Positions 19,700-48,353 of a stretch of DNA of 64,000 nucleotides are shown here, piece by piece. How positions within the stretch are numbered: the first letter of the stretch is position 1; each line of letters starts with the position of its first letter. A program made the position numbers and the translations under genes. This DNA is from Acetobacteraceae bacterium. Its GTDB lineage: Bacteria > Bacillota > Sulfobacillia > JAIMBG01. The DNA is taken from the NCBI GenBank assembly GCA_023511555.1, contig JAIMBG010000001.1, positions 961-64,960 of the forward strand. The letters run 5' to 3'. The notes beneath the pieces were generated by a model. The model did no database searches, had not been told where the DNA came from, and was given only the letters and a program-made list of their open reading frames with translations.

Positions 19700-20953
19700 C
19701 TAAAGGCCGGCCCTGATCTCCACCCCTTCCCTGAGCCACCCCGCGATGAAGCACGCCGGGCTGCGGGAGCCCTGGGCGATCCACTCCCGCAGCAGCGCCC
19801 CGGCCTCCCTGCACCGGAACCACTCCCGTCCCAGGCGGCGCCGGAGGTCTGCAGTGAGCGCCGCAGAAAGGCAGGTGGAGAGGAGGTAGACGAGCCAGGA
19901 GTGCGCCGTGCCGGGCTCGGCCAGCCAGAACCCTGGTGAAAAGGGCGCGCTCAGCGCCTCCGCCTGCCCTCGGGCGTAGCCCTCCAGCGCCGCTGGGGCG
20001 TCCTCCCCGGCGTCCCGAGCGGCCTCCAGCGCGAACCGCCAGTTGGCCGCTGCAGCCCGGCGGGGCATCAGCCGGCTGAGCCGGGCCCAGCCGGAAAGCC
20101 CCGCCATCCAGGGGCCCGCCCAGGCGAGGTCACGCCCGAGCTGGCCCAGCAGGTGGGCGAAGCCCTCAGCCACCGCTATCCCGGACGTTCCCGTCCCCTT
20201 GGTCCCGGCGTGGGCGAACTGGAGCGCGTGCCCCGTCTCGTGCAGCAGCGTCACCACGTCGGCGTAGCGGCCGGAGAGCTCCACCGCTGCCACCGCCGCC
20301 CCGTTCTGCACTGAACACCTGCCACGCGAGGCCTGGCCCCGGCAGAGGAGGAGGCGCACCGGCATGAGTGCCCCCTCCAGCACCCCCATCTCCGCCAGCG
20401 TGTCTCCGATCCGGCCCACGGCCTCCCCCGGCGCCGGGGCCGCGGGCGGGCCCCCGTCCAGGAGGAACCGCGCCGCCGCGGCCAGGCTGGGGAAGGGCGG
20501 CGGCGGGTCTGCGGCCTCCAGCATCGCCCCGGCCAGGGCGCCGGTGTCGGAGGGCCCCAAGCCCAGGCGCTGGGCGCCGTGGCGCTCCAGCCAGGAGACA
20601 AGCCGCCGGAGCGGTCCGCCCGCAAACGCCCGGTACTGGCGCACCACCGCCTCTCCGGCAGCGGCCACCGCTGCGGCGAGCCCCCGCTCCCGCCGCTCCC
20701 CTTCGGGGTACGGTGCCGCCACCCACCGCAGGAGCTGGGTGCCCTGACCGGTCCAGCCCGTAAGCCTTCGCGCCACCCGGTGGAGGAGCTGGAACCGCGC
20801 GCTAAGCTCCTCTTCGCCGGCCGCGATGTTGGCCGCGTCCTCCGCCACCGCCCCGCCCAGCCCCGACGCCGCGATGAGCCGCAGGCTCCCCGCATCGGCC
20901 ACCGGGCTGCCCAGGGCGGGGAGCCGGGCCACCTCTTCCCACTCTATCCCCAT
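19700..20953 (-). CDS. HExxH zinc metallopeptidase (unassigned family)
   Basis: LLHETGHALQF (HExxH) with a downstream Glu candidate (AEGFAH); ~417 aa, cytoplasmic. Starts 6 nt after the queA stop. Confidence 0.55.
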   Translation of the reverse strand: MGIEWEEVARLPALGSPVADAGSLRLIAASGLGGAVAEDAANIAAGEEELSARFQLLHRVARRLTGWTGQGTQLLRWVAAPYPEGERRERGLAAAVAAAGEAVVRQYRAFAGGPLRRLVSWLERHGAQRLGLGPSDTGALAGAMLEAADPPPPFPSLAAAARFLLDGGPPAAPAPGEAVGRIGDTLAEMGVLEGALMPVRLLLCRGQASRGRCSVQNGAAVAAVELSGRYADVVTLLHETGHALQFAHAGTKGTGTSGIAVAEGFAHLLGQLGRDLAWAGPWMAGLSGWARLSRLMPRRAAAANWRFALEAARDAGEDAPAALEGYARGQAEALSAPFSPGFWLAEPGTAHSWLVYLLSTCLSAALTADLRRRLGREWFRCREAGALLREWIAQGSRSPACFIAGWLREGVEIRAGL

Positions 20954-20959
20954 CGGGGC

Positions 20960-21985
20960 TCACCTGATCAGCAGGGCGTCCCCGAAGTCGTAGAACCGGT
21001 AGCCGGCGTCCCGCGCCCGCCGGTAGCACTCCTTCATGAGGTCCACGCCGATGAGCGCCGCGGTGACCAGAAGGCCCGTGCTCCGGGGCGGATGGAGGTT
21101 GGTGACCAGCCCGGTGATGCATCGCACCCGGTACCCGGGGTACATGTAGAGGTCGGACATGCCCTTCATGGGGCGGACGCGGCCGGTCCCGTCCGCCGCG
21201 GTCTCCAGGGTGCGGGCGACGGTGGTCCCGATGGCTACCACCCGCTTCCCCGCGGCCCGGGCGCGGTTCACCGCTTCGGCGGTGTCGGGCGGCACCTCTA
21301 TTTCTTCGCCGTGCATCACGTGGTCCTCGACGTGCTCCACGGTTATCGGGGCTGAGCCCAGACCGATGTGGAGCGTGATGTATTTCATGTCGATGCCGGC
21401 CTGGGCCAGGCTGTCGATGACCCGTGGCGTGAAGTGCAGGCCGGCGGTGGGCGGCAGCCCCGACCCCGGCTCCCGGGCGTAGACCGTGTCGTAGAGCGCC
21501 CGCTCGCGGACCTTTTGGTCGGCGAACACCGGCAGGGCCAGCTCCCCGATCTTCTCCACCGCGGCGTAGAAGTCGCCCTCGCAGGTGAAGCGGATTATCC
21601 AGTGCGTCATGGGGCCGATCTGCTCCGGCTCCAGCAGCTCCCCGGTTACGCCCTCACCGAAGAACAGCCGCTCTCCGGGGCCCAGCCCCCTCGCCGGTCG
21701 TACCTGGCAGCACCACACGTCGGGCGCCCGCCGCGAGACCAGCACCACCAGGAGCTCGCGACCGTCGGCCCGCCGCCCCGGCAGACGGCAGGGGATGACC
21801 TGGCTGTCGTTGGCGACGAGCAGGTCTCCCGGGTCCAGGAAGCCCGCGATATCGCGAAAGATCGCGTGCTCTATCGCACCCGTGGCCCTGGTGAACACCA
21901 TGAGGCGGCACTGGTCCCGGTCGGCCAGGGGCACCCGGCCGATCTGCTCCACTGGCACGTCGATGCTGAGCTCGTCGACCCTCAT
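20960..21985 (-). CDS. queA: S-adenosylmethionine:tRNA ribosyltransferase-isomerase QueA (paralog 1)
   Basis: Collinear with E. coli QueA as I recall it (MRVDELSIDVP…YDTVYAREPGSGLPPTAGLHFT…VAIGTTVARTLE…YRFYDFGDALLI). ATG 21985 preferred; the track's 21994 is a GTG. Confidence 0.8.
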   Translation of the reverse strand: MRVDELSIDVPVEQIGRVPLADRDQCRLMVFTRATGAIEHAIFRDIAGFLDPGDLLVANDSQVIPCRLPGRRADGRELLVVLVSRRAPDVWCCQVRPARGLGPGERLFFGEGVTGELLEPEQIGPMTHWIIRFTCEGDFYAAVEKIGELALPVFADQKVRERALYDTVYAREPGSGLPPTAGLHFTPRVIDSLAQAGIDMKYITLHIGLGSAPITVEHVEDHVMHGEEIEVPPDTAEAVNRARAAGKRVVAIGTTVARTLETAADGTGRVRPMKGMSDLYMYPGYRVRCITGLVTNLHPPRSTGLLVTAALIGVDLMKECYRRARDAGYRFYDFGDALLIR

Positions 21986-22043: not shown

Positions 22044-22073
22044 CCCCGCACGCGCCTTGCGGCGCGCGCGGGG
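22044..22073 (-). other. Very stable GC hairpin (13-bp stem, GCAA loop) after the small ORF; candidate stabilizer/attenuator, no U-tract
   Basis: Minus-strand CCCCGCGCGCGCC-GCAA-GGCGCGTGCGGGG, 13 pairs with one G·U, starting 10 nt after the TAG of the 25-codon ORF. Confidence 0.35.
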
Positions 22074-22082
22074 AGCCGCGGC

Positions 22083-22160
22083 CTACATCAGCTTGCACGA
22101 CAAGGTAAGCTCCTTGAAGAGCTCCACCTTGGCGCACAGAGGCTTGACATAAGCCTTCAA
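22083..22160 (-). CDS. Candidate 25-aa precursor peptide, PqqA-like (MKAYVKPLCAKVELFKELTLSCKLM), TTG start
   Basis: TTG start 6 nt after a strong AAGGGAGGTG SD and 19 nt after the PqqD-like stop. Not in the ORF track (below its length cutoff). Resembles PqqA in the KP…E-x-T-L motif; a stable hairpin follows. Confidence 0.3.
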   Translation of the reverse strand: MKAYVKPLCAKVELFKELTLSCKLM

Positions 22161-22179
22161 CGGGTTCACCTCCCTTCTT

Positions 22180-22489: not shown

Positions 22490-23566
22490 TCAGATCATTA
22501 GGGTGGTGTCCCCAAACTCGTAAAAGCGGTACCTCTGCGCCACCGCCTCCCGGTAGGCCGAAAGCACGAGTTCCCGCCCGGCGAACGCCGCTACCAGCAG
22601 GAGCCGGGTGCTGCGGGGCTGGTGGAAGTTGCTGATGATGGCGTCGCAGGCCTTAAACCTAAAGCCCGGGTAGATGAACAGCCCCGCCCAGCCCGACCCG
22701 GCCCGCACTACGCCGTCGTCCCCCGTTGCTGTCTCCAGGGTGCGCACGCAGGTGGTGCCGCAGGCGAACACGCGGCCGCCCGCGGCGCGCCGGCGATTTA
22801 TCTCGGCCGCGGCCTGGGGAGACACCTCGTACCACTCGGGCAGCATGGTGTGCTGGGTATAGTCCTCCATCTCGATGGGCAGCGAGCTCACCCCCACGTG
22901 GAGCGTGAGCCGGGTTATGGCCGTGCCCTGGGAGGCGATCCTGTCCAGCAGTTCGGGGGTGAAGTGCCGGCCGGCGGCGGGAAGCTCCGTGGACCCCGGG
23001 TTTTGGGCGTACACCGTCTGGTACTGCTCGAAGTCCCTGGGCTCCCGGATATACATAGAGTAGGACGGGCGGCCCAGCTCGCTCAGCACCGGCCACAGCA
23101 GGTCAGGATCGCTGAACTCCACCCGCCAGGCCCGCGCCCCCACCTGCTCCACCAGCCGCCCGGAAAGCCTCTTGCCGAAGGTGAGGCGGAGCCCCTGGCG
23201 GGCCGCCCGCGGCGGCCGCACCAGGCAGTGCCAGGTGCCGTCGGGGCAGCGGGAGAAGATGTTGAGCGTAACCCGGGCCCCGTCGTCCCGGGTCCCGGGG
23301 AGGAGGCTGTTTATCACCCGCGAGTCGTTTATGACCAAGACGTCGCCGGGGAGGAGGTACTCCACGATGTCGCAGAAGCGGCGGTGCTCCAGGACGCCCC
23401 TTCGGCGGTGGATGACCAAAAGGCGCGACTGGTCGCGGCTTAACCCCTGGTTTTCCACCGGCTCCCGGGCTACGAGCTCCATGGGCAGGTCGAACTCGTA
23501 CTCTGAGAGCCTGTGAAGCCTGGCTTCCTGCGGGATGACGCTGGGGGTCGTGGCTTCACTGTTCAT
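22490..23566 (-). CDS. QueA-family ribosyltransferase-isomerase paralog 2, possibly recruited to a secondary pathway
   Basis: Full-length QueA homolog (…EFDLPMELVAREP…LLVINDSRVI…YQTVYAQNPGSTELPAAGRHFT…FACGTTCVRTLE…YRFYEFGDTTLMI). Overlaps the upstream kinase stop; lies 19 nt from PqqD. Confidence 0.75.
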   Translation of the reverse strand: MNSEATTPSVIPQEARLHRLSEYEFDLPMELVAREPVENQGLSRDQSRLLVIHRRRGVLEHRRFCDIVEYLLPGDVLVINDSRVINSLLPGTRDDGARVTLNIFSRCPDGTWHCLVRPPRAARQGLRLTFGKRLSGRLVEQVGARAWRVEFSDPDLLWPVLSELGRPSYSMYIREPRDFEQYQTVYAQNPGSTELPAAGRHFTPELLDRIASQGTAITRLTLHVGVSSLPIEMEDYTQHTMLPEWYEVSPQAAAEINRRRAAGGRVFACGTTCVRTLETATGDDGVVRAGSGWAGLFIYPGFRFKACDAIISNFHQPRSTRLLLVAAFAGRELVLSAYREAVAQRYRFYEFGDTTLMI

Positions 23567-24545
23567 GGGGGCTGCCCACCTCCCAGCTCAGGATCTCGTT
23601 GACTCGCCTTCCGGCGGCCGTGATGTGGAGCGAGGCGCGGTACTTGTCCGGGGTGAGGTGAAAGCAGGCTATCATCTGCCGGATCTCCTCCAGAAGGGCG
23701 TAGATAGCGCTGCGGCGGGGCCAGGACGCCGTCGCCGGCCGTCGTCTGCGGAAGGCCCGCTCCACCAGGGGATAAAAGTCGCCCCAGTTGGTGAACCCCG
23801 CCAGCTCTACGTCGGCATCGGCGAACTGCGCGTGCTCCAGGTCTATGACCCCCACGATGCTGGTCTGGCCGGGAGGTCCGTCGACCATGACGTTGGACAT
23901 GTTGGCCAGGTTGCCGTGGACGAAGGCCGGGCGGATCTCGGGGTCGTCGATGGCCCGGGCCGCGATCTCCTTGAGCTTGAGCAGCCTGTCCGCCGGTACC
24001 CCGGCCACAAAGCCCAGGTAGTTCAGGCGCAGAAACCCCCGCTCCCGGAAGAACGATGCCCAGGTGGGGAAGCCCTGCAGCAGCCCGCGATGATCGATCC
24101 AGCCGAACAGCGGCGCCTCGATCTCGGCCAGGTCGGCCAGCAGCTCCCCCATCTTCCCGGCCAGGCGCTCCCGCTCCGCGACGGTAAGCGTGTCCCAGGC
24201 CAGGTGGAGGGGCGTGCCCGGCATCTTCTCCATGAGCACGTATGCCCTGCCGGCGGCGCCCGCCTCCCCCGAGGCCCCATGGACCCGGGGCACCCGCACC
24301 CGGGACATCCCCAGCACCAGGCGGCTGAGGTGGGGTTCCTTGAGGAGCTGCTGTTGGTTCTCCAGCCGGGCATTCTCCGGCGCCACCTTCATGATGTAGG
24401 TGCCGGCGGTGCACTCCACCTCGTAGACCGTGTTGCAGCGGCCGCCCCCCAGCTCCTTCACCCCGGTGAGCTCACCGCCGAGGTGCCGTTCCACCGCCCG
24501 CCGGATAACGTCCCGGTCCACTTCGGCCTTCAGCGTGGACTCCAC
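23556..24545 (-). CDS. Phosphotransferase-family kinase (APH/choline-kinase-like fold)
   Basis: GTG 24545 after an AGGAGG RBS. N-lobe …ELGGGRCNTVYEVECTAGTYIMKV…, Brenner-like HGNLANMSNVMV, DxxxxN-type …VIDLEHAQFAD… Maximal ORF to 24770 is an antisense extension. Confidence 0.7.
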   Translation of the reverse strand: MESTLKAEVDRDVIRRAVERHLGGELTGVKELGGGRCNTVYEVECTAGTYIMKVAPENARLENQQQLLKEPHLSRLVLGMSRVRVPRVHGASGEAGAAGRAYVLMEKMPGTPLHLAWDTLTVAERERLAGKMGELLADLAEIEAPLFGWIDHRGLLQGFPTWASFFRERGFLRLNYLGFVAGVPADRLLKLKEIAARAIDDPEIRPAFVHGNLANMSNVMVDGPPGQTSIVGVIDLEHAQFADADVELAGFTNWGDFYPLVERAFRRRRPATASWPRRSAIYALLEEIRQMIACFHLTPDKYRASLHITAAGRRVNEILSWEVGSPHEQ

Positions 24546-24577
24546 GCCGCCACCCCTCCTAAGCCGGGGAGATCGCT

Positions 24578-25996
24578 CTAGGAGGCCAACACCAGTTGCG
24601 GAGCCGCCTCTCTCCACGCCCTGTCCCGGTCGAATCGCACATATAGCCCCTGGGGGTCGAAGTCCGCCGGCGGATGGCCCCCGTGGCAGAAGAAGAGGTA
24701 GAGGAAAAGGTCGGCGGTGAACCTCTGCAGCCTGTCGGGATAGAGCCACCTCAGCGGGTGGCTGTCCCACTCCACCCCCGGGAGCGCGGCGACGGCCCCG
24801 GCCACCGCCGCCCTGAGCCCCGCAGCGGCGTCGGGCAGGCCCACCTTGTTGCGGGATGCCACCGCCTCACCCAGGCCTCCGGGGAGCAGGGCCCGCACCA
24901 GGTCACGCAGGGGCCGCTTGGTGACCCCGCCGCGCACCAGTTCCCCGGGCGTCTGAGCCAGGGCGTAGTCGATCACCTGGGGGTCGAGGTAGGGAAAGGC
25001 CACCGGGGTGGGAGCCGCCTCCACGCGGGCGGTCCGCAGGTGAAGGTGGGGCAGCCGCTCGGTGAGGTTCATCCAGTAGAGCGCCCGGAACAGATCGGCG
25101 TTGCCCAGCCGCTCCCACTCCCCGATGCGGGCAGCCACCTCAGAGGCGCCTGGCACCTCGCCCCCCCGCGCCCGTAATAGGGCGTCCAGCCGCCGTCTCA
25201 GCCCCTCCACGTACAGCCGGGGGTGGGGGTAGATCCACCAGTACCCCGCGAAGAGTTCGTCAGCACCCTCGCCGCACAGCACCACCGGGACGGTGCCACG
25301 GACGGCGCCGCAGGCGGCCGCCACGCTGCCGGTCAGTATGCGGGGCGAGGCTATGAGCCGCACTACCTGGCACCACCTGTCCAGCGGGGAGCCGGCCGGC
25401 TCCACCATGACCTCCAGGCCCTGGATCACCAAATGCTGGCACACCCGGCGGGCCATGCCGCGGTCGGCCCGGCTGGACTCATCGCCGGATATGGCAGTGA
25501 CCGCCACCAGCGGCACGCTTGCCACCCGCGCCGCCCGGCGGGCCAGGACGGCCAAAAGCGTGGAGTCGACCCCGCCGGACAGCAGCACCGCTCCCCCGCC
25601 GTAGATTGCGGCCGAGACGGCGTTGTACAGCCTCGCCTCCAGGCCGGGTCCGTCGCCCCTTTCCGGAGCTGGGGGCGGGGGCGGCACTGACACTTCGACC
25701 TCCAGCCGCCCCCAGGGCGCAAACCGCGCCCTCACTGAGCCCCCCGGAGGCACCTGGCGCACGGCGCGGAAGACGGTGCGGGTCCCAGTGGGAAAGCCGA
25801 GGACGGCCTCCTCCACCAGCGCCGCGGAGTCCAGCCTGCGGTCCACGGCGGGATCAGCCAGGATCGCCGCCATCTCGTCGGCCCAGAGCAGGGTGCGGCC
25901 GTCACAGGTCAGAGCATAGTACAGCGCGTCCTGCCCGAACCAGCTTCGGGTCAAGACCAGCTCGCCGTCGCCCGAAAAGCGGCCCGCCCGGTTCAT
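24578..25996 (-). CDS. Asparagine synthetase (AsnB) C-terminal-domain homolog lacking the glutaminase domain; candidate ATP-dependent amide/lactam synthetase
   Basis: PP-loop LLSGGVDSTLLAVL and AsnB motif CGEGADELFAGYWW. N-terminus MNRAGRFSG… (ATG 25996) has no Cys2 nucleophile and only ~110 aa precede the PP-loop. Maximal ORF to 26419 is an antisense artefact. Confidence 0.7.
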   Translation of the reverse strand: MNRAGRFSGDGELVLTRSWFGQDALYYALTCDGRTLLWADEMAAILADPAVDRRLDSAALVEEAVLGFPTGTRTVFRAVRQVPPGGSVRARFAPWGRLEVEVSVPPPPPAPERGDGPGLEARLYNAVSAAIYGGGAVLLSGGVDSTLLAVLARRAARVASVPLVAVTAISGDESSRADRGMARRVCQHLVIQGLEVMVEPAGSPLDRWCQVVRLIASPRILTGSVAAACGAVRGTVPVVLCGEGADELFAGYWWIYPHPRLYVEGLRRRLDALLRARGGEVPGASEVAARIGEWERLGNADLFRALYWMNLTERLPHLHLRTARVEAAPTPVAFPYLDPQVIDYALAQTPGELVRGGVTKRPLRDLVRALLPGGLGEAVASRNKVGLPDAAAGLRAAVAGAVAALPGVEWDSHPLRWLYPDRLQRFTADLFLYLFFCHGGHPPADFDPQGLYVRFDRDRAWREAAPQLVLAS

Positions 25997-26013: not shown

Positions 26014-27555
26014 TCACTCCTGTCCGAGTTGGCCGGCCGCCGCGCCCGGGGCCGGGCCCCTGGCCCCCACCAGGGCCAGCCGGTCCACCTTCCCCGAAGG
26101 GGTGCGGGGGAGCGCGGGCAGGAACTCCACGTCGCGCGGAACCATGTGCTCCGGCAGCACCCTGCGGCAGTGCTCGAACAGCTCCGCCTGCTCCAGGGGC
26201 CGCCGGGCCACCACGAAGACCCGCACCACCTCGCCCCAGACCCGGTTCCTGTCCCACACCACGGCGGCCTCGGCCACATCGGGGTGGGCCAGGAGCGCCT
26301 TCTCGATCGTCTCTCCCGAGACCTGAACCCCGGCGAACTTCACCATGTTTCGCGTCCGCCCGATGAGCTCCAGGCGGCCCTGCTCGTCGAACCGCCCCAG
26401 GTCCCCGGCGTGGGCCCACTCGCCCCGGTAGTGCTCCGCCGTGTCCTGCGGGCGCCGGTAGTAGCCGCTGGAGAGCCGGCCGTCAGGTGTGCGCAGGGAG
26501 TGCACCCAGACCTCACCCACGCCGGGGGCAAGGCCCTCGGCGTCAGCGCGCGCCGGCAGGATGCGGATCTCGCACCCGGGAAGCGGCCGGCCGACGAACC
26601 TCCAGTTCGACTCAGGGTCGTCGTCCCAGTTGAGGCAGGCCTGGCTGTACTCCCCGGAGCCGTAGTTGTTGTGGAGGTGGTGGCCGAAGCGGGAGAAGAA
26701 CTCGTCCCCCATCTTGGGGAAGAACGACGCCCCCACCATGCAGAGCCGCGTCCTCGGCCAGGTCATGCGTCCCGGGGCGGCGTCCATCAGCGCCCGGTAC
26801 ATGAACCCGATCCCCACCAGGTAGGTGAGTGTGCCGGAGGCGCACGCCCGGAGCACCTCGCGGGGGTTGAACCGGTCCTGCAGCAGCACCGTGGCCTGCG
26901 ACATCAGCGCCGAGAGGAACACCTGGTCCCGGCCGAAGCCGTTGAGGAAGGGGAGAGCCCCCAGTATCACGTCGTCGCGGGTGCAGTAGGTCGACTCGGC
27001 GGAGTGAACCACCCTGGCCCGCAACTGGTCGCTGGTGATCATGATCAGCTTGGGGATGCCGGTGCTGCCCGAGGTGGGACAGAGGACGGCCGTCCCCGGC
27101 ACCGGCGGTTCGGGATCGGGGGCCCGCGCCTCGCGCTTCGCGGGCGCAGCAGCCCAGAGGCTCTCCCCGGACTCGTCCACCATCAGCATGCGGGTGGGCA
27201 GGGGGGCCAGGATGTCCTGAACCAGCCCGGCGTGCTCCGGGGTGGTGACCAGGTAGCGCGCCCCGCTCTCCTCTATCAGCGCCGCCATAACGTGGCGGTG
27301 GTAGCTGGGGCTGAGCGGGAGCATCACCGCCCGGATGCGGCTCAGCGCGCAGAACGCCACGGGGAACGCCGGGGTGTTGCTCAAGAGCAGCACCACGTGG
27401 TCGCCAGGGCTCACGCCCTGATGCCTGAAGTCCAGAAGACGGGCCTCGGCCCGGCGGAGGAACTCGGCGTAGGTGATTTCCGTCCCCCGCCACAGGTAGG
27501 CCGGGTGGCCGGGGCGCTCGGCGGCCGCCTTCTCCAGCCAGTCAAACGGCACCAC
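26014..27555 (-). CDS. ANL-superfamily adenylating enzyme (acyl/aryl-CoA ligase or carrier-protein-loading adenylation enzyme)
   Basis: A3-like TSGSTGIPK, A5-like NNYGSGE, A7/A8-like YRGEWAHAGDLGRFDEQGRLELIGRTRNMVKFAGVQV. GTG 27555 sits 7 nt after the ACP stop, with a GGGTGAGGGAG RBS. Confidence 0.75.
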   Translation of the reverse strand: MVPFDWLEKAAAERPGHPAYLWRGTEITYAEFLRRAEARLLDFRHQGVSPGDHVVLLLSNTPAFPVAFCALSRIRAVMLPLSPSYHRHVMAALIEESGARYLVTTPEHAGLVQDILAPLPTRMLMVDESGESLWAAAPAKREARAPDPEPPVPGTAVLCPTSGSTGIPKLIMITSDQLRARVVHSAESTYCTRDDVILGALPFLNGFGRDQVFLSALMSQATVLLQDRFNPREVLRACASGTLTYLVGIGFMYRALMDAAPGRMTWPRTRLCMVGASFFPKMGDEFFSRFGHHLHNNYGSGEYSQACLNWDDDPESNWRFVGRPLPGCEIRILPARADAEGLAPGVGEVWVHSLRTPDGRLSSGYYRRPQDTAEHYRGEWAHAGDLGRFDEQGRLELIGRTRNMVKFAGVQVSGETIEKALLAHPDVAEAAVVWDRNRVWGEVVRVFVVARRPLEQAELFEHCRRVLPEHMVPRDVEFLPALPRTPSGKVDRLALVGARGPAPGAAAGQLGQE

Positions 27556-27562
27556 GGCTCCC

Positions 27563-27805
27563 TCACCCCTCTTCGGCCGGCCGGGAGGCACGCACCAGGT
27601 CCGCCCATGCCCTGGCGGACCGGGGCCGCCTGCGGCGAAGCTCATCCTCCTCGATCAGCACTCCGAAACGGCGCTCCAGCGAAACCACAAGCTGGATGAG
27701 GTCCATTGAGGCCAGCTCCAGCTCGCGATCGGGGTCGTCCCGGCCGTACGCCAGGTGAGGCATGGCCTCAAGCTCCGCCAAAACGCCTTCCAGGACCTGA
27801 TCCAA
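27563..27805 (-). CDS. Acyl/peptidyl carrier protein (phosphopantetheine attachment site)
   Basis: 80 aa; …ELASMDLIQLVVSLERRFGV… matches the carrier-protein helix-II Ser motif. TTG start after GGAGGGA, directly downstream of the SBP stop. Confidence 0.65.
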   Translation of the reverse strand: MDQVLEGVLAELEAMPHLAYGRDDPDRELELASMDLIQLVVSLERRFGVLIEEDELRRRRPRSARAWADLVRASRPAEEG

Positions 27806-27808
27806 GTC

Positions 27809-29386
27809 TCATCCCTCCATGCCTGACCGGGCCGGGGCCCGGCCCCATCTCCACCGGTGAGCGTTCCAGGTGACCGGCGTCTGCGACGACCCGCCTGGCC
27901 GGAAGTTCAGCAGCCCCACCCGGTGGGCCGAGACCTCGATGCGGTGGTACAGCGGGAGCGAAGGGAGGTCCCGGGCGAACAGCTCCTGCTGTCGGTGCAG
28001 GAGCTCCCACCGCCGCCGCTCGTCGAACTCCTCCTCGGCCCGGGCCAAAAGCTCGTCCACCTCCGGGTTCCGCCAGCCGGCGAAGTTGTGGCCGGAGTAC
28101 CCGTTTTCCGGGCCGGGCACCTGCTGGGAGTGCCAGGCGCCGCGCCCGATGGTGTCGGGGTGCATGAGCCAGGCGTAGAGCAGCAGATCGAACTCCCGCC
28201 GGCGCGCAAACTCCCCAAACACCCGGCGGGGCTCGTCCTCTCGGACCTCCACGGCGGCGCCGAACGCCCTCCACTGCTCCTTTAGCTCCGCCGCCGCCCT
28301 TATCCTCGCCGGATCCCCGGCGGTGGTGGTGATGGTGAACGAAAGCGGCTTCCCGTCTCCGTCCGCCCAGGTCCCGTCCCGGAACTCGAACCCGCAGCCC
28401 TTAAGCAGCTCGGCCGCGCGGCGGGCGTCGCCGCCGGGAAGGCGCTGGGCCTTGTACCCGCGGTGCCTTTCCGGAAGCCAGGAATCGGCGAGCCGGCCTT
28501 TGCCCCCGGTCGCCGCCGCCACCACCCGGGAGCGGTCCACGGCCCAGGCGAGGGCGTGCCTTACCTCGCGCCGGCCCAGGTGGGGGTGGTCGAGGTTGAA
28601 GTCGATGCGTTCCACGGCCAGAGACGGCGTGAAGTGGACGCACACCCGCCCCCGGCCCGCCTCGGCCAGCCGGGCGGCCTGGCCCAGGGTAAGGTTGTTG
28701 GTGGCCATTACGTCAAGGTCGCCCCGGAGCAGCGCCGCCGCCATCTCCTCCGGGTCGGGGATGAACCGGAACGACAGCCCGTCCAGGGGCGGCCGTCCCT
28801 CGCAGAAGTCGGGCACGGCGGAAAGGTCTATGCGGTCCTTTGGCCTCCACTCCACGAAGCGGAAGGGGCCGGTGGTGAGCGGCCGCTTGCCGAACTCCAG
28901 CAGGTGGAATCCGGCCGGGTCCTTGAGGTACGCCGGCTCGAGCACGTGCCGGGGGAGCATCAGGTAGTAGTGATTGGCCGTCGCCAGCCGGCGCTTCCAG
29001 GTGACCACCAGGGTATACGGGTCGGGGCACTGCATGTCCTCGATCTGGGGGTCGTACCAGCGCGAGTCTATCTGCACCCTGGGGTCCATCCTCAGCCGCC
29101 AGGTCCAGACTGCGTCCTGGGTGGTGAGGGGCACCCCGTCGTGCCAGCGGTAGCCGCGCTTCCAGTGGTAGGTGATGCGCATGCCGCCGCCGGGCAGGAA
29201 CTCCCACCCCCGCCCTGGGGTGGGGATGCGCCGGAGCACCCGGGGGTGGGCCCGGCCGCGGTCATCGTAGTGCAGCGGCCGGGTGGTCATGGCCCCCAGG
29301 ATGTCCGCGGCCGAGGCCATGGCCTGCATACCGGGGAACAGGCTGTCCGGTTCCTGGCTGAGCCCTATCCTGGCCAGCCCGCCCAT
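27809..29386 (-). CDS. Solute-binding protein family 5 (DppA/OppA-like) paralog without a signal peptide
   Basis: SBP_bac_5 architecture throughout. N-terminus MGGLARIGLSQEPDSLFPG… has no hydrophobic signal or lipobox, and the upstream gene leaves no room for one. Confidence 0.75.
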   Translation of the reverse strand: MGGLARIGLSQEPDSLFPGMQAMASAADILGAMTTRPLHYDDRGRAHPRVLRRIPTPGRGWEFLPGGGMRITYHWKRGYRWHDGVPLTTQDAVWTWRLRMDPRVQIDSRWYDPQIEDMQCPDPYTLVVTWKRRLATANHYYLMLPRHVLEPAYLKDPAGFHLLEFGKRPLTTGPFRFVEWRPKDRIDLSAVPDFCEGRPPLDGLSFRFIPDPEEMAAALLRGDLDVMATNNLTLGQAARLAEAGRGRVCVHFTPSLAVERIDFNLDHPHLGRREVRHALAWAVDRSRVVAAATGGKGRLADSWLPERHRGYKAQRLPGGDARRAAELLKGCGFEFRDGTWADGDGKPLSFTITTTAGDPARIRAAAELKEQWRAFGAAVEVREDEPRRVFGEFARRREFDLLLYAWLMHPDTIGRGAWHSQQVPGPENGYSGHNFAGWRNPEVDELLARAEEEFDERRRWELLHRQQELFARDLPSLPLYHRIEVSAHRVGLLNFRPGGSSQTPVTWNAHRWRWGRAPARSGMEG

Positions 29387-29407
29387 GTCTTCAGCCCTCC
29401 CGTGCCC

Positions 29408-31042
29408 TCAGCTCCCCCACCGCCAGGTGTGCGCGTTCCAGGGGAGGTAGGTCCCCGAGAGCCCCACCGGCCTGACCCCAAGCAGGCTGCGCTTTGAGGT
29501 CTGGAGGTGGATGCGGAAGTAAAGGGGGAGGGAGGGGAGGTCGGCGGCGAACTGCTCCTGCTGCCGGTGGAACAGCTCGATCCGCTTCGCGGTGTCAAGC
29601 TCCCGCAGGACCGCGGCGATGAGGCGGTCGTTCTCCGCGCTGCGCCAGCCGCAGAAGTTCTGGCCGGTGTAGTTGTTATCCGGGGACGGTATCTGGCTGG
29701 AGTGCCACAGCCCGAAGCCCGGGGCGGTGGGGCTCATCACCCACGACAGCATGACCAGTTGGAACTGCCTTTTGCGCAGCCGGTCGGCGATAAGCACCTG
29801 GGCCGGCAGCTCCTCCAGCTTCAGCTCGATGCCGGCCCGGGCCAGGTCCTCTGTCATGGCGGCCGCGATTCGCCGCCGGAGCTGGTTTCCGGCGGTGGTG
29901 GACAGCGTGAGGGTGAGCCTCTCGCCGCCGGCGTTCCGGCGGATGCCGTCGGGGCCGCGGCGCCAGCCGGCCTGGTCCAGGAGCTGCGAAGCGCGGTCGG
30001 GCTCGTACTCGTACCGCGGAACGCCGGGGTGGAAAGCGTAGTATCTTTCGCCCAGCCAGGTGTGGGCCACGTTCACCCGGCCCCGGAACTCGCGCTTGAC
30101 CGCGGCCTCGCGGTTGAACGCATGGAGCAGCGCCCGCCGCACCCGGACGTCGGAGAGCACCGGGTCGTCGAGGTTGACGTCGATGTGCTCCCACTCGATG
30201 GCCGGGCTGTAGTGGGTGGCGACAAAGTCGCCCGCCGCCTCCTCTATCTCCGCCATGTCCTCCAGGGAGAAGTTGTTGAGCTCGGTGCAGTCCACCTCGC
30301 CCGCGATCTGGGCCCTCTTCAGCGAGGCGGCGTCGGGGTAGAAGCGGTAGACCAGCCGCTTTATCGTGGCCGGACCCTCCACGAAGTCTTCCACCGCCCG
30401 GACGCTCAGCTCCTCCCCGCGCCTCCAGTAGTCGAAGCGGTAGGGGCCGTTGCCCATCGGGTGGTCCCAGAGGGGGACCTGGTCGAGCCTGTCCCTTCCC
30501 TTGAGCAGCGGCTCATAGACCCTGCGGGGTACGAACGACGCCCCATATGCGGCGCCGAAGAACAGGTCGGCGTGAGGCAGCCGCTCTTTCCAGTGGACGT
30601 CGAACTCCAGGTCGTTCTTCACCACGATGCTTTCTATCTTGGCCTCTATCCACCGGGTAACGATGGGCAGCCGGGGGTCGAGGCAGAACTGCCAGCCGTA
30701 GAGCACGTCGTCGGCCGTCACCGGGGTGCCGTCGTGCCACTTGTAGCCGGGACGGAGGCGGTAGTGCATTATCATCCGGTCTCCGTGGACCTCCCAGGAG
30801 CCGTCCTCCAGGGAGGGGAGCTTCTCGGCCACGCGGGCGTATGGCTTCCAGTCGTCGTTCCACTCGATGAGCGCGCAGAACATGGTGTTCATCACCGCTC
30901 CGGCGGCCACCGTGCTCTGCCCCTTTATGGCCATCCCGTCGGGCTCCTGCGCCATCCCGATGACCACCGTCTTTTCGTCTATCACCGGGCCCTTTATGGG
31001 CATCCGCCTCATCCCTCCCTCGGTTCTTCGGACCACACCCAC
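29408..31042 (-). CDS. Solute-binding protein family 5 paralog without a signal peptide
   Basis: Paralog of the neighbouring genes (…IGMAQEPDGMAIKG…). No signal peptide; overlaps the upstream paralog's 3' end. Confidence 0.75.
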   Translation of the reverse strand: MGVVRRTEGGMRRMPIKGPVIDEKTVVIGMAQEPDGMAIKGQSTVAAGAVMNTMFCALIEWNDDWKPYARVAEKLPSLEDGSWEVHGDRMIMHYRLRPGYKWHDGTPVTADDVLYGWQFCLDPRLPIVTRWIEAKIESIVVKNDLEFDVHWKERLPHADLFFGAAYGASFVPRRVYEPLLKGRDRLDQVPLWDHPMGNGPYRFDYWRRGEELSVRAVEDFVEGPATIKRLVYRFYPDAASLKRAQIAGEVDCTELNNFSLEDMAEIEEAAGDFVATHYSPAIEWEHIDVNLDDPVLSDVRVRRALLHAFNREAAVKREFRGRVNVAHTWLGERYYAFHPGVPRYEYEPDRASQLLDQAGWRRGPDGIRRNAGGERLTLTLSTTAGNQLRRRIAAAMTEDLARAGIELKLEELPAQVLIADRLRKRQFQLVMLSWVMSPTAPGFGLWHSSQIPSPDNNYTGQNFCGWRSAENDRLIAAVLRELDTAKRIELFHRQQEQFAADLPSLPLYFRIHLQTSKRSLLGVRPVGLSGTYLPWNAHTWRWGS

Positions 31043-32595
31043 TCCTGCGCGTTCCAGGTGACCGGCCCCACCGACATCCCGGTGGGACGGATGCCTTTCA
31101 GACCGCGGCGGTGGGCCACCACCTCCGCCCTCATGAGCAGCGGAAGGCAGGGCAGGTCGCGGGCGAAGACCGCCTGCTGCTCCCGCATCACCGCCGCCCG
31201 GCGGTCGTCGTCCAGCTCTCGCAGCCCCCGGGACAGCAGGGCGTCGTTTTCCGCGCTCCGCCAGCCGGGGTAGTTGCGGCCCTGCCAGGCGTTCTGGGGG
31301 CTGGGGACCTGAGACGAGTGCCAGGCCCCGAACCCCATGGCGTGAAGGTGCATCACCCAGGAGTACATGGCCAGGTGCTCGAACCGCCGCCGCGGCAGAA
31401 GCTCGGTAAACAGTTCCCGGGCCGGGACCCAGCCGGTCTCGCAGGCCACGCCTATCTCCCGCCAGGCCGAGACCAGCCCCTCGGCCAGCCGCTCCCTGAG
31501 CTTGTCGCCCGCGGTGGTAAGCAGCCGCAGCGGGCTCTTGCCGGCGGGGATGAGCCGTCCGGAGCGCTCCTCCCAGCCCGCCTCGAGCAGCAGCGACCGC
31601 GCCCTCCCGGGGTCGCGCCCCAGAGCCCTGAGCACCGGGTCGTGGTCGGGATGCCCGGTGGGCAGCCAGCTCGTCGCCACCTGGAGCCGGCCCGCCGACG
31701 CCTGCCGCACCAGCTCCTCCCGGTCCACCGCCAGGGCCAGGCCCAGCCGGGCCCGGGGGTCGGAGAGCGCCGGGGAGTCGCAGTTGAAGTCCAGCCTTTC
31801 CACGATGAGCGCGGGCTTGTAAACGAATCTGAACTCCGGAAAGGCGTCCTCCAGGTCCAGAACCTCGTCAAGCGACATCGACGCGCCCGAGACCACGTCG
31901 ACCTCGCCCCGTCGCCAGCCCGCGACGAGCTCCTCCGGCCCCGGGTAGAAGCGGAAGACTATCCGCTCCGCCGCCCGGCCCCGGGCGGGGGGCGGGGGCG
32001 GCGCCATGCGGACCACCTCGATGAACTCCCCTGGAACCCAGCGGGAGAACCGGAACGGACCCATGCCCACCGGGCTCCGGGCGAAGGGAAGCCGCGGGAG
32101 CGAGGTGGGGTCCCTGTCGAAAGCCTCCGCCAGGAGGTGGCGGGGCAGCGCCCGGTGGCACATGTTGGCGTTGGGGGTCATCTCACTCCAGTCGACCACC
32201 AGGGTGAGGGGGTCCGGGCAGTGCATCCCGGCCACCTTGACGTCGTCGGACTTCGTCACCACGGACTTTACGGCGGGGTGCGTCCACATCCGCCATGTCC
32301 ACTCGACGTCGTAGGCCTGGAGCGGATGCCCGTCGTGCCACCGCACCCCCGGCCGGATGCGGTAGGTGAGCCGCATGCGGCCGTCGGGGAACACCTCCCA
32401 GTCGCCGCCCGATACCGAAGGGATGCGCTCCACCCAGGTGGGGAAAGGCCGCCAGTCGTCGCCGTACTGCACCGGCCGGGTGTAGAGCGTCGCCAGCACC
32501 AGCCCCGAGGCGTAAAGCGGCGTAAACGCCAGCAGCAGGTTGTCCGGCTCCTGCGTCACCCCGATGACCACCGTGCCCTCGTCACCGCGACCCAT
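31009..32595 (-). CDS. Solute-binding protein family 5 paralog without a signal peptide
   Basis: MGRGDEGTVVIGVTQEPDNLLLAF…; starts 22 nt after the 5'-nucleotidase stop; no signal peptide. Confidence 0.75.
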   Translation of the reverse strand: MGRGDEGTVVIGVTQEPDNLLLAFTPLYASGLVLATLYTRPVQYGDDWRPFPTWVERIPSVSGGDWEVFPDGRMRLTYRIRPGVRWHDGHPLQAYDVEWTWRMWTHPAVKSVVTKSDDVKVAGMHCPDPLTLVVDWSEMTPNANMCHRALPRHLLAEAFDRDPTSLPRLPFARSPVGMGPFRFSRWVPGEFIEVVRMAPPPPPARGRAAERIVFRFYPGPEELVAGWRRGEVDVVSGASMSLDEVLDLEDAFPEFRFVYKPALIVERLDFNCDSPALSDPRARLGLALAVDREELVRQASAGRLQVATSWLPTGHPDHDPVLRALGRDPGRARSLLLEAGWEERSGRLIPAGKSPLRLLTTAGDKLRERLAEGLVSAWREIGVACETGWVPARELFTELLPRRRFEHLAMYSWVMHLHAMGFGAWHSSQVPSPQNAWQGRNYPGWRSAENDALLSRGLRELDDDRRAAVMREQQAVFARDLPCLPLLMRAEVVAHRRGLKGIRPTGMSVGPVTWNAQEWVWSEEPREG

Positions 32596-32617: not shown

Positions 32618-34108
32618 TCACAGGAGCGTGTGGCCGTCCAGGAAGTCGCTGTCCTGCTCCCCCGCAGACCAGGGCGGGGGCGGCGGCTGGCTCACCAGCT
32701 CCACCGGCGGGGCCGGGGCTCCCGGCCCGGACCTGAGGTACTCCTTGAGACAGGTGACGGGGTGGATGCCCGTGTCCTGCCCGTCTGGGGGCATCCGGAA
32801 GCCCGCCCCGCCGCGGGCCATGTACTCCTGCACCGCCACGGCGTACCGGCCGTCCTCGTCCGGCGGGCCCTCGAACTCCAGCCCCACCACGCGCTGCCCC
32901 GGGGGCCGCCGGGGGTCGACCTTGACCTTGGCCCCCGCCACCTGCAGCAGCGTTCCCCCCAGGGCGTCAAGCTGCTTCAGGCCGTGCTCCAGACAGGCCA
33001 GGACTTCCTCGCGTGTGAGGCGGAACCGCACTACCCGGGAGCGGTAGGGAATCACGTCCACCAGGTCCTGGTAGCGGATGGGGCCCTTGAGGCCGGCCGA
33101 GAACACCCCGCCCACGAGCTGCAGCGCCACGTCGCACTTGCAGTGCCAGCGAACCGCGGCCGCCACCAGGCCCCCCAGGGCGGCCTGGCCCCGGCGCAGC
33201 CGCACCAGGTTGCCGTCGGTGTAGGGCAAGAATGCTACCGGCTGGTCCAGCTCCTCCCGGAAGGGCCGGAGCGCCGCCTCGACCGCCGGGTCGGGCGGTA
33301 TGGCCAGGGAGACCTCGATGAGCTGGGCCTGGGCCCTGAGCCAGCGCCCGGGCAGGAGCTCCGCCTCCAGTCGGCCGAGCCAGCGCCCCTGCCTTCCGGC
33401 CTTGACCACGATGGGCCCCGGCCCCTCGTACTCGGCCACCGGGCTGCTGCCGCCAGGGGGGATGAGCCCGGCGAACCCCGCCACATGACCCCCCACGATC
33501 ACGTCGGCATGGGGAAACTCCGCCGCCAGGCGGCAGTCGTCCTCCGTGGTCTGGTGAGTGATCACCACCACCCAATCGGGTGCCTCGGCGTTGCCGCCGC
33601 CCACCAGCCGCTGGAGCGCCGGGACCGGGGGCAGCCATCTGAGCTGGGCCCGGGCTGGGGGGTTGAACTTGCTGAACACGTCCTCCGAGACCACCGAGGC
33701 TATCAGCACTGACCCGGCCGGGGTCTTAAGCAGGGCCGTCTCGGGCAGCACCGGCCCCCCCTCCGCCAGGTGCACGTTGCTGGACACGATGGGGAAGCTG
33801 GCCAGGGAGGCTAGCTCCCGGATGTAGGCCGGCCCCAGGTCGAAGTCGTGGTTGCCGCAGCCCATGGCGTCGTAACCGGCGGCGCTCATGCCCACGATGT
33901 CGGCACGCCCGCCGAACGCCGCAGATGCCGTGGCCCCGTAAAGCACGTCGCCGCTGTCGAGCAGCAGCACCGCCCCCCCGCCCTCCCGCTCTCGCCGTAC
34001 CAGCGCGGCCCGGCGCTCCAGGCCCCCGACCGGCCGCCCGTCCGGGGCGGAAAACGGCCAGACGGAGGCGTGGTGCTCGCAGGAGTGGAAGATGACCAGC
34101 CGGCTCAC
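32618..34108 (-). CDS. Bifunctional metallophosphatase / 5'-nucleotidase (UshA/YfkN family), cytoplasmic
   Basis: Calcineurin-like metallophosphatase motifs (…LLLDSGD…, GNHDFD) and a 5'-nucleotidase C-terminal substrate-binding domain. No signal peptide. Confidence 0.8.
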   Translation of the reverse strand: MSRLVIFHSCEHHASVWPFSAPDGRPVGGLERRAALVRREREGGGAVLLLDSGDVLYGATASAAFGGRADIVGMSAAGYDAMGCGNHDFDLGPAYIRELASLASFPIVSSNVHLAEGGPVLPETALLKTPAGSVLIASVVSEDVFSKFNPPARAQLRWLPPVPALQRLVGGGNAEAPDWVVVITHQTTEDDCRLAAEFPHADVIVGGHVAGFAGLIPPGGSSPVAEYEGPGPIVVKAGRQGRWLGRLEAELLPGRWLRAQAQLIEVSLAIPPDPAVEAALRPFREELDQPVAFLPYTDGNLVRLRRGQAALGGLVAAAVRWHCKCDVALQLVGGVFSAGLKGPIRYQDLVDVIPYRSRVVRFRLTREEVLACLEHGLKQLDALGGTLLQVAGAKVKVDPRRPPGQRVVGLEFEGPPDEDGRYAVAVQEYMARGGAGFRMPPDGQDTGIHPVTCLKEYLRSGPGAPAPPVELVSQPPPPPWSAGEQDSDFLDGHTLL

Positions 34109-35346
34109 CCGCCGACCCCCTCCTTCCGGATGCCGTGCTCCCGCACCTCACGGCGCAGCGTCATCGACGCCGCCAGGGCGGAGAGGATGGGGCCGCAGAC
34201 CGCAAACACCGCGGCTGGGCCGAGGATCTCGGTGAGCTCGCCCACGGCCAGGAAACCCAGGGGCAGGATGGACATCCCTAGGGCCATGCCGGCGCCGCTC
34301 ACCCGGCCCACGAACTCCGCAGCCACGTCGGACTGAAGCGAGGTCTGCCAGATGACCCCGAACACCGTGCTGCCCGCGCCCACCACCAGGCCGGCGAGCA
34401 GCACGCTCCACAGCGCTGGGCACAGGCCCGCGACCAGCAGGCTCAGCCCCTGGGCGGCGACTGCCCAGTACACCACCAGGCCGGGGCGCAGCAGGCGCAG
34501 GCCGGAGCCGAAGGCCACCGCCATGCCGACAGACCCCGCCGCCTGGACGCTGTAGGCCAGGCCCAGGCCGACGAGACCGATGCTGGCGTGGGCGCGGGCC
34601 AGAAGCGGCAGGGAGACCAGCCAGGGGCCGGCGGCCAGCACGTTGCCCACGGCGGTGAAGACAGAGGCGCCCAAGAGGAACCGGTGCCGCAGCAGTTCCC
34701 TCCAGCCGGGGCCAATCTTCCTCCACAGCGGCTCCGACGGCCCGCGCGCCTGGCGGGCGGCGACCCTGAGCAGCATCAGGGTGGCCACCGACACCATGAA
34801 GGTGGCGGCATCGAAAAGGACCGGGGCGCTGAGCCCCCCCAGGGCGGCCAGGCCGGTCGCCAGCGTGGGGCCGATCACCATGGCTGTTTGACGGGTGGCC
34901 GCCAGGAGCGAATTGGTGGGGGGCAGGATCTCCCGGGGGGCAATGTCGGCGATGAGAGCCATGGAGGCGGGCTGAAACAGCGACTCCAGCAGGCCGAACA
35001 GCGCCATGGTCAGGTACAGCATCCACATCTGATGCCGGCCCAAAAGGACCACGAGGCCCAGCGCCGCCACCAGGGCGGCGCGGCCTGCATCGGCCCAGAT
35101 CATTACCCTGCGCCCGCTGACGCGGTCGGCGAGGGCCCCGCCGAACATAAGCATAACGGCCTGGGGCAGGGAAGCGGCCACCAGCACCAGCGACACCTGA
35201 AGGCCGGAGTCGGTGAGCGTGCAGGCGATCCATGCCAGGGCCACCTGGTATATGCGGTCGCCAAGCAAAGACAGAGACTGGCCGGACCAGTACAGCCGGA
35301 CTCGGGCGTTCCTCAGCGCCTCCAGCCAGCTTGCTCCCCTAGCCAC
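34105..35346 (-). CDS. MFS transporter (efflux-type, EntS/YbdA-like)
   Basis: 12-TM MFS pattern. GTG 35346 overlaps the GNAT stop (GTGGCTAG); maximal ORF to 35451. Confidence 0.75.
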   Translation of the reverse strand: MARGASWLEALRNARVRLYWSGQSLSLLGDRIYQVALAWIACTLTDSGLQVSLVLVAASLPQAVMLMFGGALADRVSGRRVMIWADAGRAALVAALGLVVLLGRHQMWMLYLTMALFGLLESLFQPASMALIADIAPREILPPTNSLLAATRQTAMVIGPTLATGLAALGGLSAPVLFDAATFMVSVATLMLLRVAARQARGPSEPLWRKIGPGWRELLRHRFLLGASVFTAVGNVLAAGPWLVSLPLLARAHASIGLVGLGLAYSVQAAGSVGMAVAFGSGLRLLRPGLVVYWAVAAQGLSLLVAGLCPALWSVLLAGLVVGAGSTVFGVIWQTSLQSDVAAEFVGRVSGAGMALGMSILPLGFLAVGELTEILGPAAVFAVCGPILSALAASMTLRREVREHGIRKEGVGG

Positions 35347-35929: not shown

Positions 35930-36355
35930 TCTGGCGGTCCACCTGCCCTGGTGGCGCCCTGAGGTTCAATGGGTGATAGCCCCGGGATTTGACATAATAT
36001 TCAGGTTCTGCTTAAGAACATTCGGGGCAAGACGGTTAAGTCCTGCTATACCTTGCGAGTCAAAAAAGATTTTACTAGCCTCCCTGACCACCCCGGCGAG
36101 ACCGCCACTCACCAGGGAATAGACAGGCCGCACCCCTGAGAGCCGCGGCCCGCACTCTTCAAAGCTGCAATTCTCTTCTTTCCACAATATCGGTGCCCCC
36201 GGGCGGCCGTGAGCGAACCGGGTGGGCGCAGGGTCATGCCGCATGGCCGCGAGCGACGTCGTGGCGTCCCCAGGCCGCCCGCACCGCTGCTTACTCGCGG
36301 CGCCAGCCTTGACCCCCCGCCCTGCCGGTGGCCGGGCGCGGCCTCCCCCGGGGGC

Positions 36356-46865: not shown

Positions 46866-46869
<4 letters not shown>
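45523..46869 (+). CDS. gcvPA: Glycine dehydrogenase (decarboxylating) subunit 1
   Basis: GcvPA signature sequence; start overlaps the gcvH stop (TGATG). Confidence 0.9.

Positions 46870-48353
<1,484 letters not shown>

Follow-up and report, generated by a model that had tools for sequence, protein, structure and literature searches.

A conserved 25-codon reading frame between a PqqD-family gene and a divergent QueA gene as the probable source of an RRE-dependent precursor or scaffold peptide

A 64,000-nucleotide stretch of contig JAIMBG010000001.1 (the whole of which is called the window here), taken from an NCBI metagenome-assembled genome (MAG), carries on its minus strand a 25-codon open reading frame (ORF) directly downstream of a PqqD-family gene. 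The comparisons described below indicate, with a probability that we put at about 0.7, that this ORF is a genuine translated gene for the precursor or scaffold peptide of a rare natural-product pathway that depends on a RiPP recognition element (RRE; RiPPs being peptides made on the ribosome and modified after translation). The pathway is unrelated to pyrroloquinoline quinone (PQQ) and belongs to a high-GC, spore-forming Firmicute. Its distinguishing feature, undescribed in the literature searched, is a divergent pair of QueA paralogs associated with RRE-dependent peptide biosynthesis. The features on which the argument depends are as follows.

22083..22160, minus strand: 25-codon gene of the probable precursor/scaffold peptide, TTG start, product MKAYVKPLCAKVELFKELTLSCKLM, kept in three lineages
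22167..22176, minus strand: Shine-Dalgarno sequence (SD) AAGGGAGGTG, with its GGAGG core at 22169-22173, 8 nt 5' of the start codon
22180..22470, minus strand: discrete RRE of the PqqD family, 96 amino acids (PF05402, E 4e-19)
22490..23566, minus strand: QueA paralog 1 (QueA#1), 358 amino acids, full-length PF02547, 332 bits (cutoff 324)
20960..21985, minus strand: QueA paralog 2 (QueA#2), 341 amino acids, ATG at 21985, full-length PF02547, 326 bits against a cutoff of 324
22044..22073, minus strand: 13-bp GC hairpin with a GCAA loop and one G.U pair, 9 nt after the TAG stop, with no U-tract

The reading frame and its signals

On the minus strand, the sequence from the stop codon of the PqqD-family gene to that of the peptide reads TAA-aagaagggaggtgaacccg-TTG AAG GCT ... 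ATG TAG, and the product, (M)KAYVKPLCAKVELFKELTLSCKLM, is encoded from 22160 to 22083. The PqqD-family gene ends at 22180 and is separated from the TTG start by 19 nt (aagAAGGGAGGTGaacccg), within which the GGAGG core stands at a spacing that is identical in two contigs from other lineages (L001 and L006). An open frame of 25 codons is not significant by itself in such DNA, since the window has a G+C content of about 72%, 119 ORFs of at least 20 amino acids overlap an 11-kb stretch of it and the antisense frame of the peptide ORF is likewise open; the case must therefore rest on comparison. The composition of the ORF is nevertheless that of a selected coding frame in this genome, with G+C of 0.44/0.28/0.84 at the first, second and third codon positions and five AAG lysine codons despite the 72% GC background.

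The preliminary description of this DNA, made from the sequence alone, had reported an unannotated 25-codon ORF with a strong SD, placed 19 nt after a PqqD-like gene and followed by a 13-bp hairpin in the manner of a precursor peptide gene. The ORF, its ribosome-binding signal and the intergenic distance are all as it reported, the hairpin lies at exactly the coordinates that it gave, and the precursor-like arrangement stands, with the ORF directly 3' of the RRE gene and a stable hairpin after it. That the ORF lacks annotation is supported indirectly. Neither a 25-aa nor a 42-aa form of the window peptide is present in a collection of 15 billion proteins that does contain other proteins of the same MAG, which implies that the peptide is unannotated in the NCBI record. 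For the peptide region, the gene callers behind the JGI, ENA and Logan data produced only “hypothetical proteins” over-extended to 40-48 amino acids. A second copy of the precursor was sought within the window and was not found, and the peptide has no match among PDB chains.

Conservation in three uncultured lineages

When relatives of the PqqD-like protein were sought among 5.8 billion clustered proteins, only three were recovered: the window's own record, a JGI lineage from sediment represented by five contigs (L001-L005; 71% identity to the window protein) and a Logan assembly (L006; 76%). These three uncultured lineages form the comparison set throughout. Both of the other lineages carry the peptide directly after the PqqD-family gene, as (GTG) MKAYMKPACDKVELFKELTLSCKLL in the JGI lineage and (ATG) MKAYVKPSCDKVELFKELTLSCKLL in the Logan lineage. 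Amino acid identity of the peptide between lineages is 84-88%, and 21 of the 25 residues are invariant. The three different start codons, TTG, GTG and ATG, share one alignment column, each 8 nt after GGAGG. Every change in the last 14 codons (KVELFKELTLSCKL), three in all, is synonymous; the variable columns of the whole ORF fall 4/2/6 on the three codon positions, and the only variable residue in the putative core is the C-terminal M/L. The +1 frame is broken by stops in the JGI lineage. Taken together as a pattern of substitution, these data indicate that the peptide is under purifying selection.

Conservation extends from the SD through the ORF to the hairpin, beyond which indels occur up to the ribosome-binding site of queA#2. 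Sequence 5' of the SD is unrelated between lineages, and even two JGI contigs differ there by a 1-nt indel, so that the automated calls of 40-48 amino acids are to be read as over-extensions. Between the stop codon of the PqqD-family gene and the start of the peptide, an SD-like unit occurs in the JGI lineage as three direct repeats (L001 10288-10349; CCCGGAAGGGAC / CCCGGAAAGGAC / CCCGGAAGGGAG), and in the window and Logan lineages as a single copy. The peptide ranks among the operon's best-conserved genes, its 84-88% identity standing beside 87% for the short-chain dehydrogenase/reductase (SDR), 84% for QueA#2, 71% for the RRE, 63% for a 671-aa protein, 55% for an enzyme resembling asparagine synthetase (AS-like) and 51% for a kinase.

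The preliminary description had proposed checking whether the peptide always adjoins PqqD-like and QueA-like genes, and had held that conservation of the hairpin alone, without the ORF, would count against it. The ORF itself is kept in all three lineages, and every locus that carries the peptide has the order QueA#1-PqqD-peptide-QueA#2. A back-translated motif, ELFKELTLSCK, had no match in 185,579 GTDB species genomes, and among metagenome contigs its only matches were two known JGI contigs. The family is thus extremely rare, three uncultured lineages having been found among billions of proteins and none among the GTDB species representatives. Routine genome mining would miss it for this reason.

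The recognition element and the leader motif

YxxP is an element essential for RRE binding and forms part of the leader motif [Y/W]xxPx[L/V/I/F/A] (PMC13381572). In leaders of the lasso type, YxxPxL spans positions -17 to -12 and a Thr occupies -2 (PMC10368454). The peptide has an invariant Y4-x-x-P7 and, when its core is taken to begin at S21, Y4, P7 and T19 sit at -17, -14 and -2, as the lasso rule prescribes. The putative leader would therefore comprise residues 1-20 and the putative core S21-C-K-L-M. The neighbouring RRE found its best NCBIfam match in the lasso PqqD chaperone model, below the cutoff, and its best PDB match in the lasso B1 protein TbiB1 (8e-7), with PqqCD close behind. The C-terminal CKL(M/L) was also considered as a CaaX box; this reading was given up, Lys not being an aliphatic residue and a prenylation context being absent.

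The QueA paralogs

QueA, the tRNA preQ1(34) SAM ribosyltransferase-isomerase (SAM, S-adenosylmethionine), converts an amine and SAM to an N-(epoxy-dihydroxycyclopentyl)amine, adenine and methionine (PMC10491745). The two paralogs that flank the RRE and peptide genes are like it in being full-length members of PF02547 (E-values of 1e-105 and 1e-97) that keep most invariant motifs, and they are 41% identical to each other. Unlike it, they score about 150 bits below housekeeping QueAs, share 17 replaced columns, do not stand beside tgt and are present as duplicates on either side of an RRE and a peptide gene. On the QueA equivalog model NF001140 (cutoff 324) the scores are 332 bits for QueA#1, 326 for QueA#2 and 321 for the JGI ortholog of QueA#1, compared with 479-486 for housekeeping QueAs. 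The database relatives of QueA#2 consist of one 84% ortholog and others at no more than 47% identity; the best of these remaining matches, on inspection, lie in ordinary queA-tgt-yajC-secDF loci. Word-indexed searches with the PqqD-family protein, QueA#2 and the AS-like enzyme likewise returned only orthologs of the same clade and generic housekeeping QueAs.

The paralogs were aligned with 118 other QueAs from the same search, two of which were checked and belong to housekeeping queA-tgt loci. Conservation in those QueAs reaches at least 93% at 96 columns, of which each paralog keeps about 70 and has about 27 changed. The motifs PTAGLHFT, GTT..R.LE, NFH.P.S and YRF..GD are kept in both, and 17 conserved columns are replaced in both, with the same replacements in the orthologs. 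This alignment suggests a retained catalytic core with altered substrate contacts. That suggestion goes no further than inference, since there is no substrate-bound QueA structure with which to assign the residues: the crystal structures are without substrates, and how QueA binds SAM or tRNA is still unclear (PMC10491745). A review of 2023 covers the transfer and isomerisation of the SAM ribosyl group by QueA only in queuosine biosynthesis on tRNA (PMC10491745), and no association of QueA with RiPPs, RREs, PqqD, precursor peptides or biosynthetic gene clusters was found in the literature searched.

Proposed pathway

From 5' to 3' on the minus strand, the operon runs: three SBP_bac_5 genes, a carrier protein, an adenylating enzyme, the AS-like enzyme, an APH kinase, QueA#1, the RRE, the peptide, QueA#2, an HExxH protein, the 671-aa protein, the SDR, a GFO/IDH/MocA oxidoreductase and an AlkZ-like protein. 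In the pathway suggested by this arrangement, the RRE would bind Y4-V-K-P7 and present the peptide to the neighbouring enzymes. The leader would end at L20, following lasso-type spacing, and would leave the invariant C-terminus S21-C-K-L-(M/L) as the stretch to be modified. We consider it possible, at odds well short of even, that one or both of the divergent QueA paralogs transfer and isomerise the ribosyl group of SAM onto a primary amine of the peptide and not onto preQ1-tRNA. Candidate amines are Lys23, Ser21 as the new N-terminus or one added at the C-terminus, and the product would carry an epoxy-dihydroxycyclopentyl group, adding 114.03 Da per transfer as calculated from the stoichiometry. 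Further groups may come from the AS-like ligase, from the APH kinase and from the adenylating enzyme together with its carrier protein; their site could be the C-terminal carboxylate, as it is in fosfazinomycin and nitrilobacillin. Release of the product may fall to the HExxH protein, a candidate peptidase of 417 amino acids.

The two oxidoreductases, the NTF2-like domain of the 671-aa protein and the AlkZ-like glycosylase would fit the elaboration of, and protection from, an epoxide-bearing product. The NTF2-like fold includes epoxide hydrolases, and members of the AlkZ family are self-resistance genes in clusters for DNA-alkylating natural products. All of these proteins could equally be bystanders, as the three lineages are too close for synteny to weigh much. 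Guided by the RRE, the QueA paralogs would be the first enzymes of their family to work outside tRNA, acting on a peptide amine or on a group built on the peptide and leaving a “queuine-like” epoxide warhead; this, too, is offered only tentatively. Were it true, the locus would be a candidate for a new class of RiPP or other peptide-scaffolded natural product, the AlkZ-like glycosylase might serve as self-protection against an epoxide genotoxin, and the peptide would provide a small, soluble and tractable substrate for the unusual sulfonium-ylide chemistry of QueA.

Several points weigh against the peptide-gene interpretation or parts of it. The three lineages are fairly close, so that their shared synteny partly reflects relatedness, and the codon-position signal comes from 12 variable columns. 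The sixth position of the leader motif (-12) is an invariant Cys and not L, V, I, F or A, and a core of five residues is unusually short. No clear leader peptidase was found, and the usual His of the 671-aa family is Arg in this clade. What ties the QueA paralogs to the peptide is gene context. Both still pass the QueA equivalog cutoff, just, and one of them could in principle be the tRNA enzyme of the cell. The role given below to the hairpin is likewise inferential, given that it has no U-tract. More broadly, sequence and gene context are what the case for a peptide gene is built from.

Relation to short scaffold peptides

The closest functional precedent is a recent one, that of short YxxP scaffold peptides such as FzmZ. 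In fosfazinomycin biosynthesis this 22-aa YxxP peptide, overlooked for a decade owing to its length, is the scaffold on whose C-terminus the product is put together by an AS-like enzyme with discrete RREs and kinases (PMC13622209). A survey in the nitrilobacillin paper lists approximately 300 uncharacterised non-lasso AS-like enzymes beside RiPP elements (PMC13060819). QueA is mentioned in neither paper (PMC13622209, PMC13060819). The present locus resembles the FzmZ/FzmA/FzmT system and that of nitrilobacillin PesC in having a peptide of 21-25 amino acids with an N-terminal YxxP, too short for gene callers, together with a discrete PF05402 RRE, a PF00733 AS-like enzyme, a cluster kinase and MFS transporters nearby. 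It differs from the FzmA/FzmZ type in that its AS-like enzyme has neither the glutaminase-type N-terminal domain (for release of a nitrogen nucleophile) nor a fused RRE, and in that there are no phosphonate or hydrazine genes and two QueA paralogs flank the peptide.

A true scaffold, in the logic of fosfazinomycin and the pearlins, is the alternative that survives best, and it is in effect a variant of the explanation preferred here: on the C-terminal residue, the AS-like ligase, the kinase, the adenylating enzyme with its carrier and the QueA paralogs would assemble a small molecule, which the HExxH peptidase would then cut off, so that the end product would be this molecule and not the peptide. 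The length and N-terminal YxxP of the peptide, the FzmZ/FzmA/FzmT-like combination of an AS-like enzyme with a discrete RRE and a kinase (PMC13622209), the confinement of core variation to the C-terminal M/L and the many enzymes of small-molecule type (SDR, GFO/MocA, adenylating enzyme and carrier protein) are all in keeping with it. However, the AS-like enzyme lacks the glutaminase domain and showed no detectable close kinship to characterised AS-like RiPP enzymes in the word-indexed search, and the invariant SCKL suggests that the residues of the peptide themselves matter. We give this variant roughly one chance in four. The ORF would be a further case of a very short YxxP peptide missed by gene callers that recasts the logic of a whole cluster, as happened with fosfazinomycin.

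The hairpin, and readings in which the peptide is not a substrate

The 56-nt hairpin stretch of the window has a minimum free energy of -35.3 kcal/mol (z = -2.8 against dinucleotide shuffles), and those of the two other lineages reach -36.6 and -38 kcal/mol (z -5.2 and -5.9). Across the lineages the loop takes three different forms, and the stem shows one compensatory double change from G-C to A-U. There is no U-tract 3' of the stem, and a terminator scan did not pick up the hairpin as a canonical terminator. A preQ1 riboswitch or other known leader RNA is rejected, as no Rfam family covers the region and the best scores (19 and 17 bits) are at noise level, far below the gathering scores of 40 and 75. 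The hairpin is probably a partial terminator or an element that stabilises or processes the mRNA. As such it would let a short precursor message accumulate, or attenuate read-through into queA#2 and the genes downstream, and so raise the ratio of precursor to enzymes.

The same element invites the suggestion that the ORF is a regulatory leader peptide with no role as a substrate, its translation and the hairpin serving to attenuate or couple the expression of queA#2 and the downstream genes. A short ORF upstream of a gene, with a strong hairpin 9 nt after its stop, has the form of such a leader, and a terminating ribosome would be expected to overlap the 5' arm of the stem. Leader peptides of that kind conserve only their regulatory codons, whereas here the invariance of 21 residues is accompanied by synonymous changes, and an RRE-binding-type YxxP motif lies beside an RRE gene. 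There is also no alternative anti-terminator pairing, no U-tract and no match to a known RNA family. A purely regulatory role is accordingly improbable.

It is more improbable still that the ORF is untranslated and the conserved stretch a noncoding RNA or DNA element. Open frames abound in DNA of 72% GC, the antisense frame is open and only three lineages are available, all of which would suit this view. Nevertheless, the SD and the start column are kept across three different start codons, and the third-position bias, the exclusively synonymous change over 14 codons and the coding-type distribution of G+C over codon positions are features of a translated gene. Furthermore, the region has no Rfam match, and its conservation calls for no structure other than the hairpin.

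Comparison with lasso peptides and with PqqA

Under a lasso reading, the precursor would be processed by B1 (the PqqD-family protein), B2 (the 671-aa protein) and C (the AS-like enzyme). The likenesses to lasso biosynthesis are the Tyr-17/Pro-14/Thr-2 leader, an RRE closest to the B1 proteins TbiB1, TfuB1 and PbaB1, an AS-like enzyme without the glutaminase nucleophile or domain, and weak, sub-threshold Transglut_core matches in remote relatives of the 671-aa protein. The lasso ring, however, needs an Asp or Glu at core position 7-9 (PMC10368454), and the core here, SCKL(M/L), has five residues and no acidic acceptor, with a Cys at -12 of the leader. The AS-like enzyme also failed the lasso cyclase models, scoring 20 bits on NF033535 (cutoff 525) and 53 bits on NF033561 (cutoff 300). 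There is no recognisable B2, in that no operon protein matched Transglut_core3 or B2 models. The five-residue core and the failed cyclase models imply that this is not a lasso peptide, and the core sequence effectively refutes the idea.

The resemblance to PqqA that the preliminary description had seen is superficial. What stands of it is a similar length, the position of a small peptide gene beside a PqqD-family chaperone and a KP...E-x-T-L pattern that the preliminary description had likened to that of PqqA. A family relationship does not stand: the three peptide variants matched neither the PqqA models nor other precursor models of Pfam and NCBIfam even at E <= 10 (a search in which HMMER speed filters may hide very weak matches), and there is no Glu-x3-Tyr pair and a different gene order. 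As that description had also pointed out, the cross-linked Tyr of PqqA is replaced, E17-L-T-L-S21 being found in all three lineages, and pqqB, pqqC and pqqE are missing from the 64-kb window, in line with its expectation of non-PQQ chemistry. The only radical SAM gene of the window (49198-50313) is on the opposite strand, about 27 kb away among unrelated genes. A generic RRE-binding leader accounts better for the KP...E.TL pattern than PqqA kinship does. A PQQ precursor, for which adjacency to a PqqD-family gene would speak, is refuted as a matter of family membership by the missing model match, the Ser at the cross-link position and the missing pqqB/C/E genes.

Other genes of the operon and its surroundings

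The remaining genes, all on the minus strand, are listed from the upstream end of the operon. Pathway membership is unproven for the first entry and for the last three, which are syntenic downstream genes.

27809..32595, minus strand: three tandem SBP_bac_5 paralogs, at the upstream end of the operon
27563..27805, minus strand: carrier protein of 80 amino acids, weak PP-binding match (21.7 bits against a cutoff of 20.8), LASMDLIQLV serine motif
26014..27645, minus strand: AMP-binding adenylating enzyme, from family search (maximal ORF; true start probably near 27560)
24578..25996, minus strand: AS-like ATP-dependent amide ligase, lacking both Cys2 and a glutaminase domain
23556..24770, minus strand: APH-family kinase, PF01636, 1e-21 (maximal ORF; true start probably near 24540)
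19700..20953, minus strand: HExxH protein of 417 amino acids with an HETGH motif, no family, a 12-bit Peptidase_M3-like match around the motif
17629..19644, minus strand: 671-aa protein, its N-terminal domain NTF2-like, its large second domain from an uncharacterised family in which a Cys is conserved
16873-17613, minus strand: SDR
about 15671-16700, minus strand: GFO/IDH/MocA oxidoreductase
14493-15674, minus strand: AlkZ-like DNA glycosylase (PF06224, 1.6e-52)

The AS-like enzyme starts M(D/N)RAGRF, and its match to TIGR01536 (the AsnB model) begins at profile position 133. The missing Cys2 and this late start of the match identify it as an ATP-dependent amide ligase without glutaminase. Pfam showed no RRE domain in it. 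A word-indexed protein search recovered only its three orthologs. The adenylating enzyme and the 80-aa carrier (26014-27805) resemble a loading pair of the DltA/DltC style, which would imply that an acyl or aminoacyl building block enters a ribosomal-peptide pathway.

The 417-aa HExxH protein is a candidate metallopeptidase or HExxH tailoring enzyme; in RiPP clusters, such proteins can act in oxidative tailoring as well as in proteolysis (PMC12636437). The 671-aa protein has no Pfam match and belongs to an uncharacterised family of about 117 remote relatives. Its AlphaFold model based on a multiple sequence alignment reached a pLDDT of 81 and a pTM of 0.82, compared with a pLDDT of 37 for the single-sequence model, and a Foldseek comparison of the model with the PDB resolved only the NTF2-like N-terminal domain. 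In its large C-terminal domain, Y522, Q525 and Y535 are invariant in the family and Cys368 is mostly conserved. The residue that is usually His397 is replaced by Arg in this clade, so that the idea of a Cys protease resembling lasso B2 is unproven. A pattern search for the protein in genome contigs gave 53 matches, none confirmed by alignment.

The AlkZ-like glycosylase is syntenic in both lineages that have long contigs. The SBP_bac_5 paralogs, of the OppA/DppA type, start at the mature domain, with no signal peptide and no lipobox, and are conserved in the JGI lineage. Their sequences suggest cytoplasmic peptide-binding proteins, with possible roles in immunity, sequestration or chaperoning. 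Further upstream (32621-37867, minus strand) lie a 5'-nucleotidase/metallophosphoesterase, two MFS_1/MFS_3 transporters and a GNAT acetyltransferase, which may provide export or self-resistance functions for the same cluster.

The NCBI label of the source, “Acetobacteraceae bacterium”, looks like a misclassification. The window contains spoIIIAA, spoIIIAE and a split gcvP (gcvPA/PB), at 58130-62097 and 45463-48350 on the plus strand, and the nearest relatives of its QueAs come from Firmicutes; on these sequence markers, the source is therefore an endospore-forming member of the Bacillota with about 72% GC.

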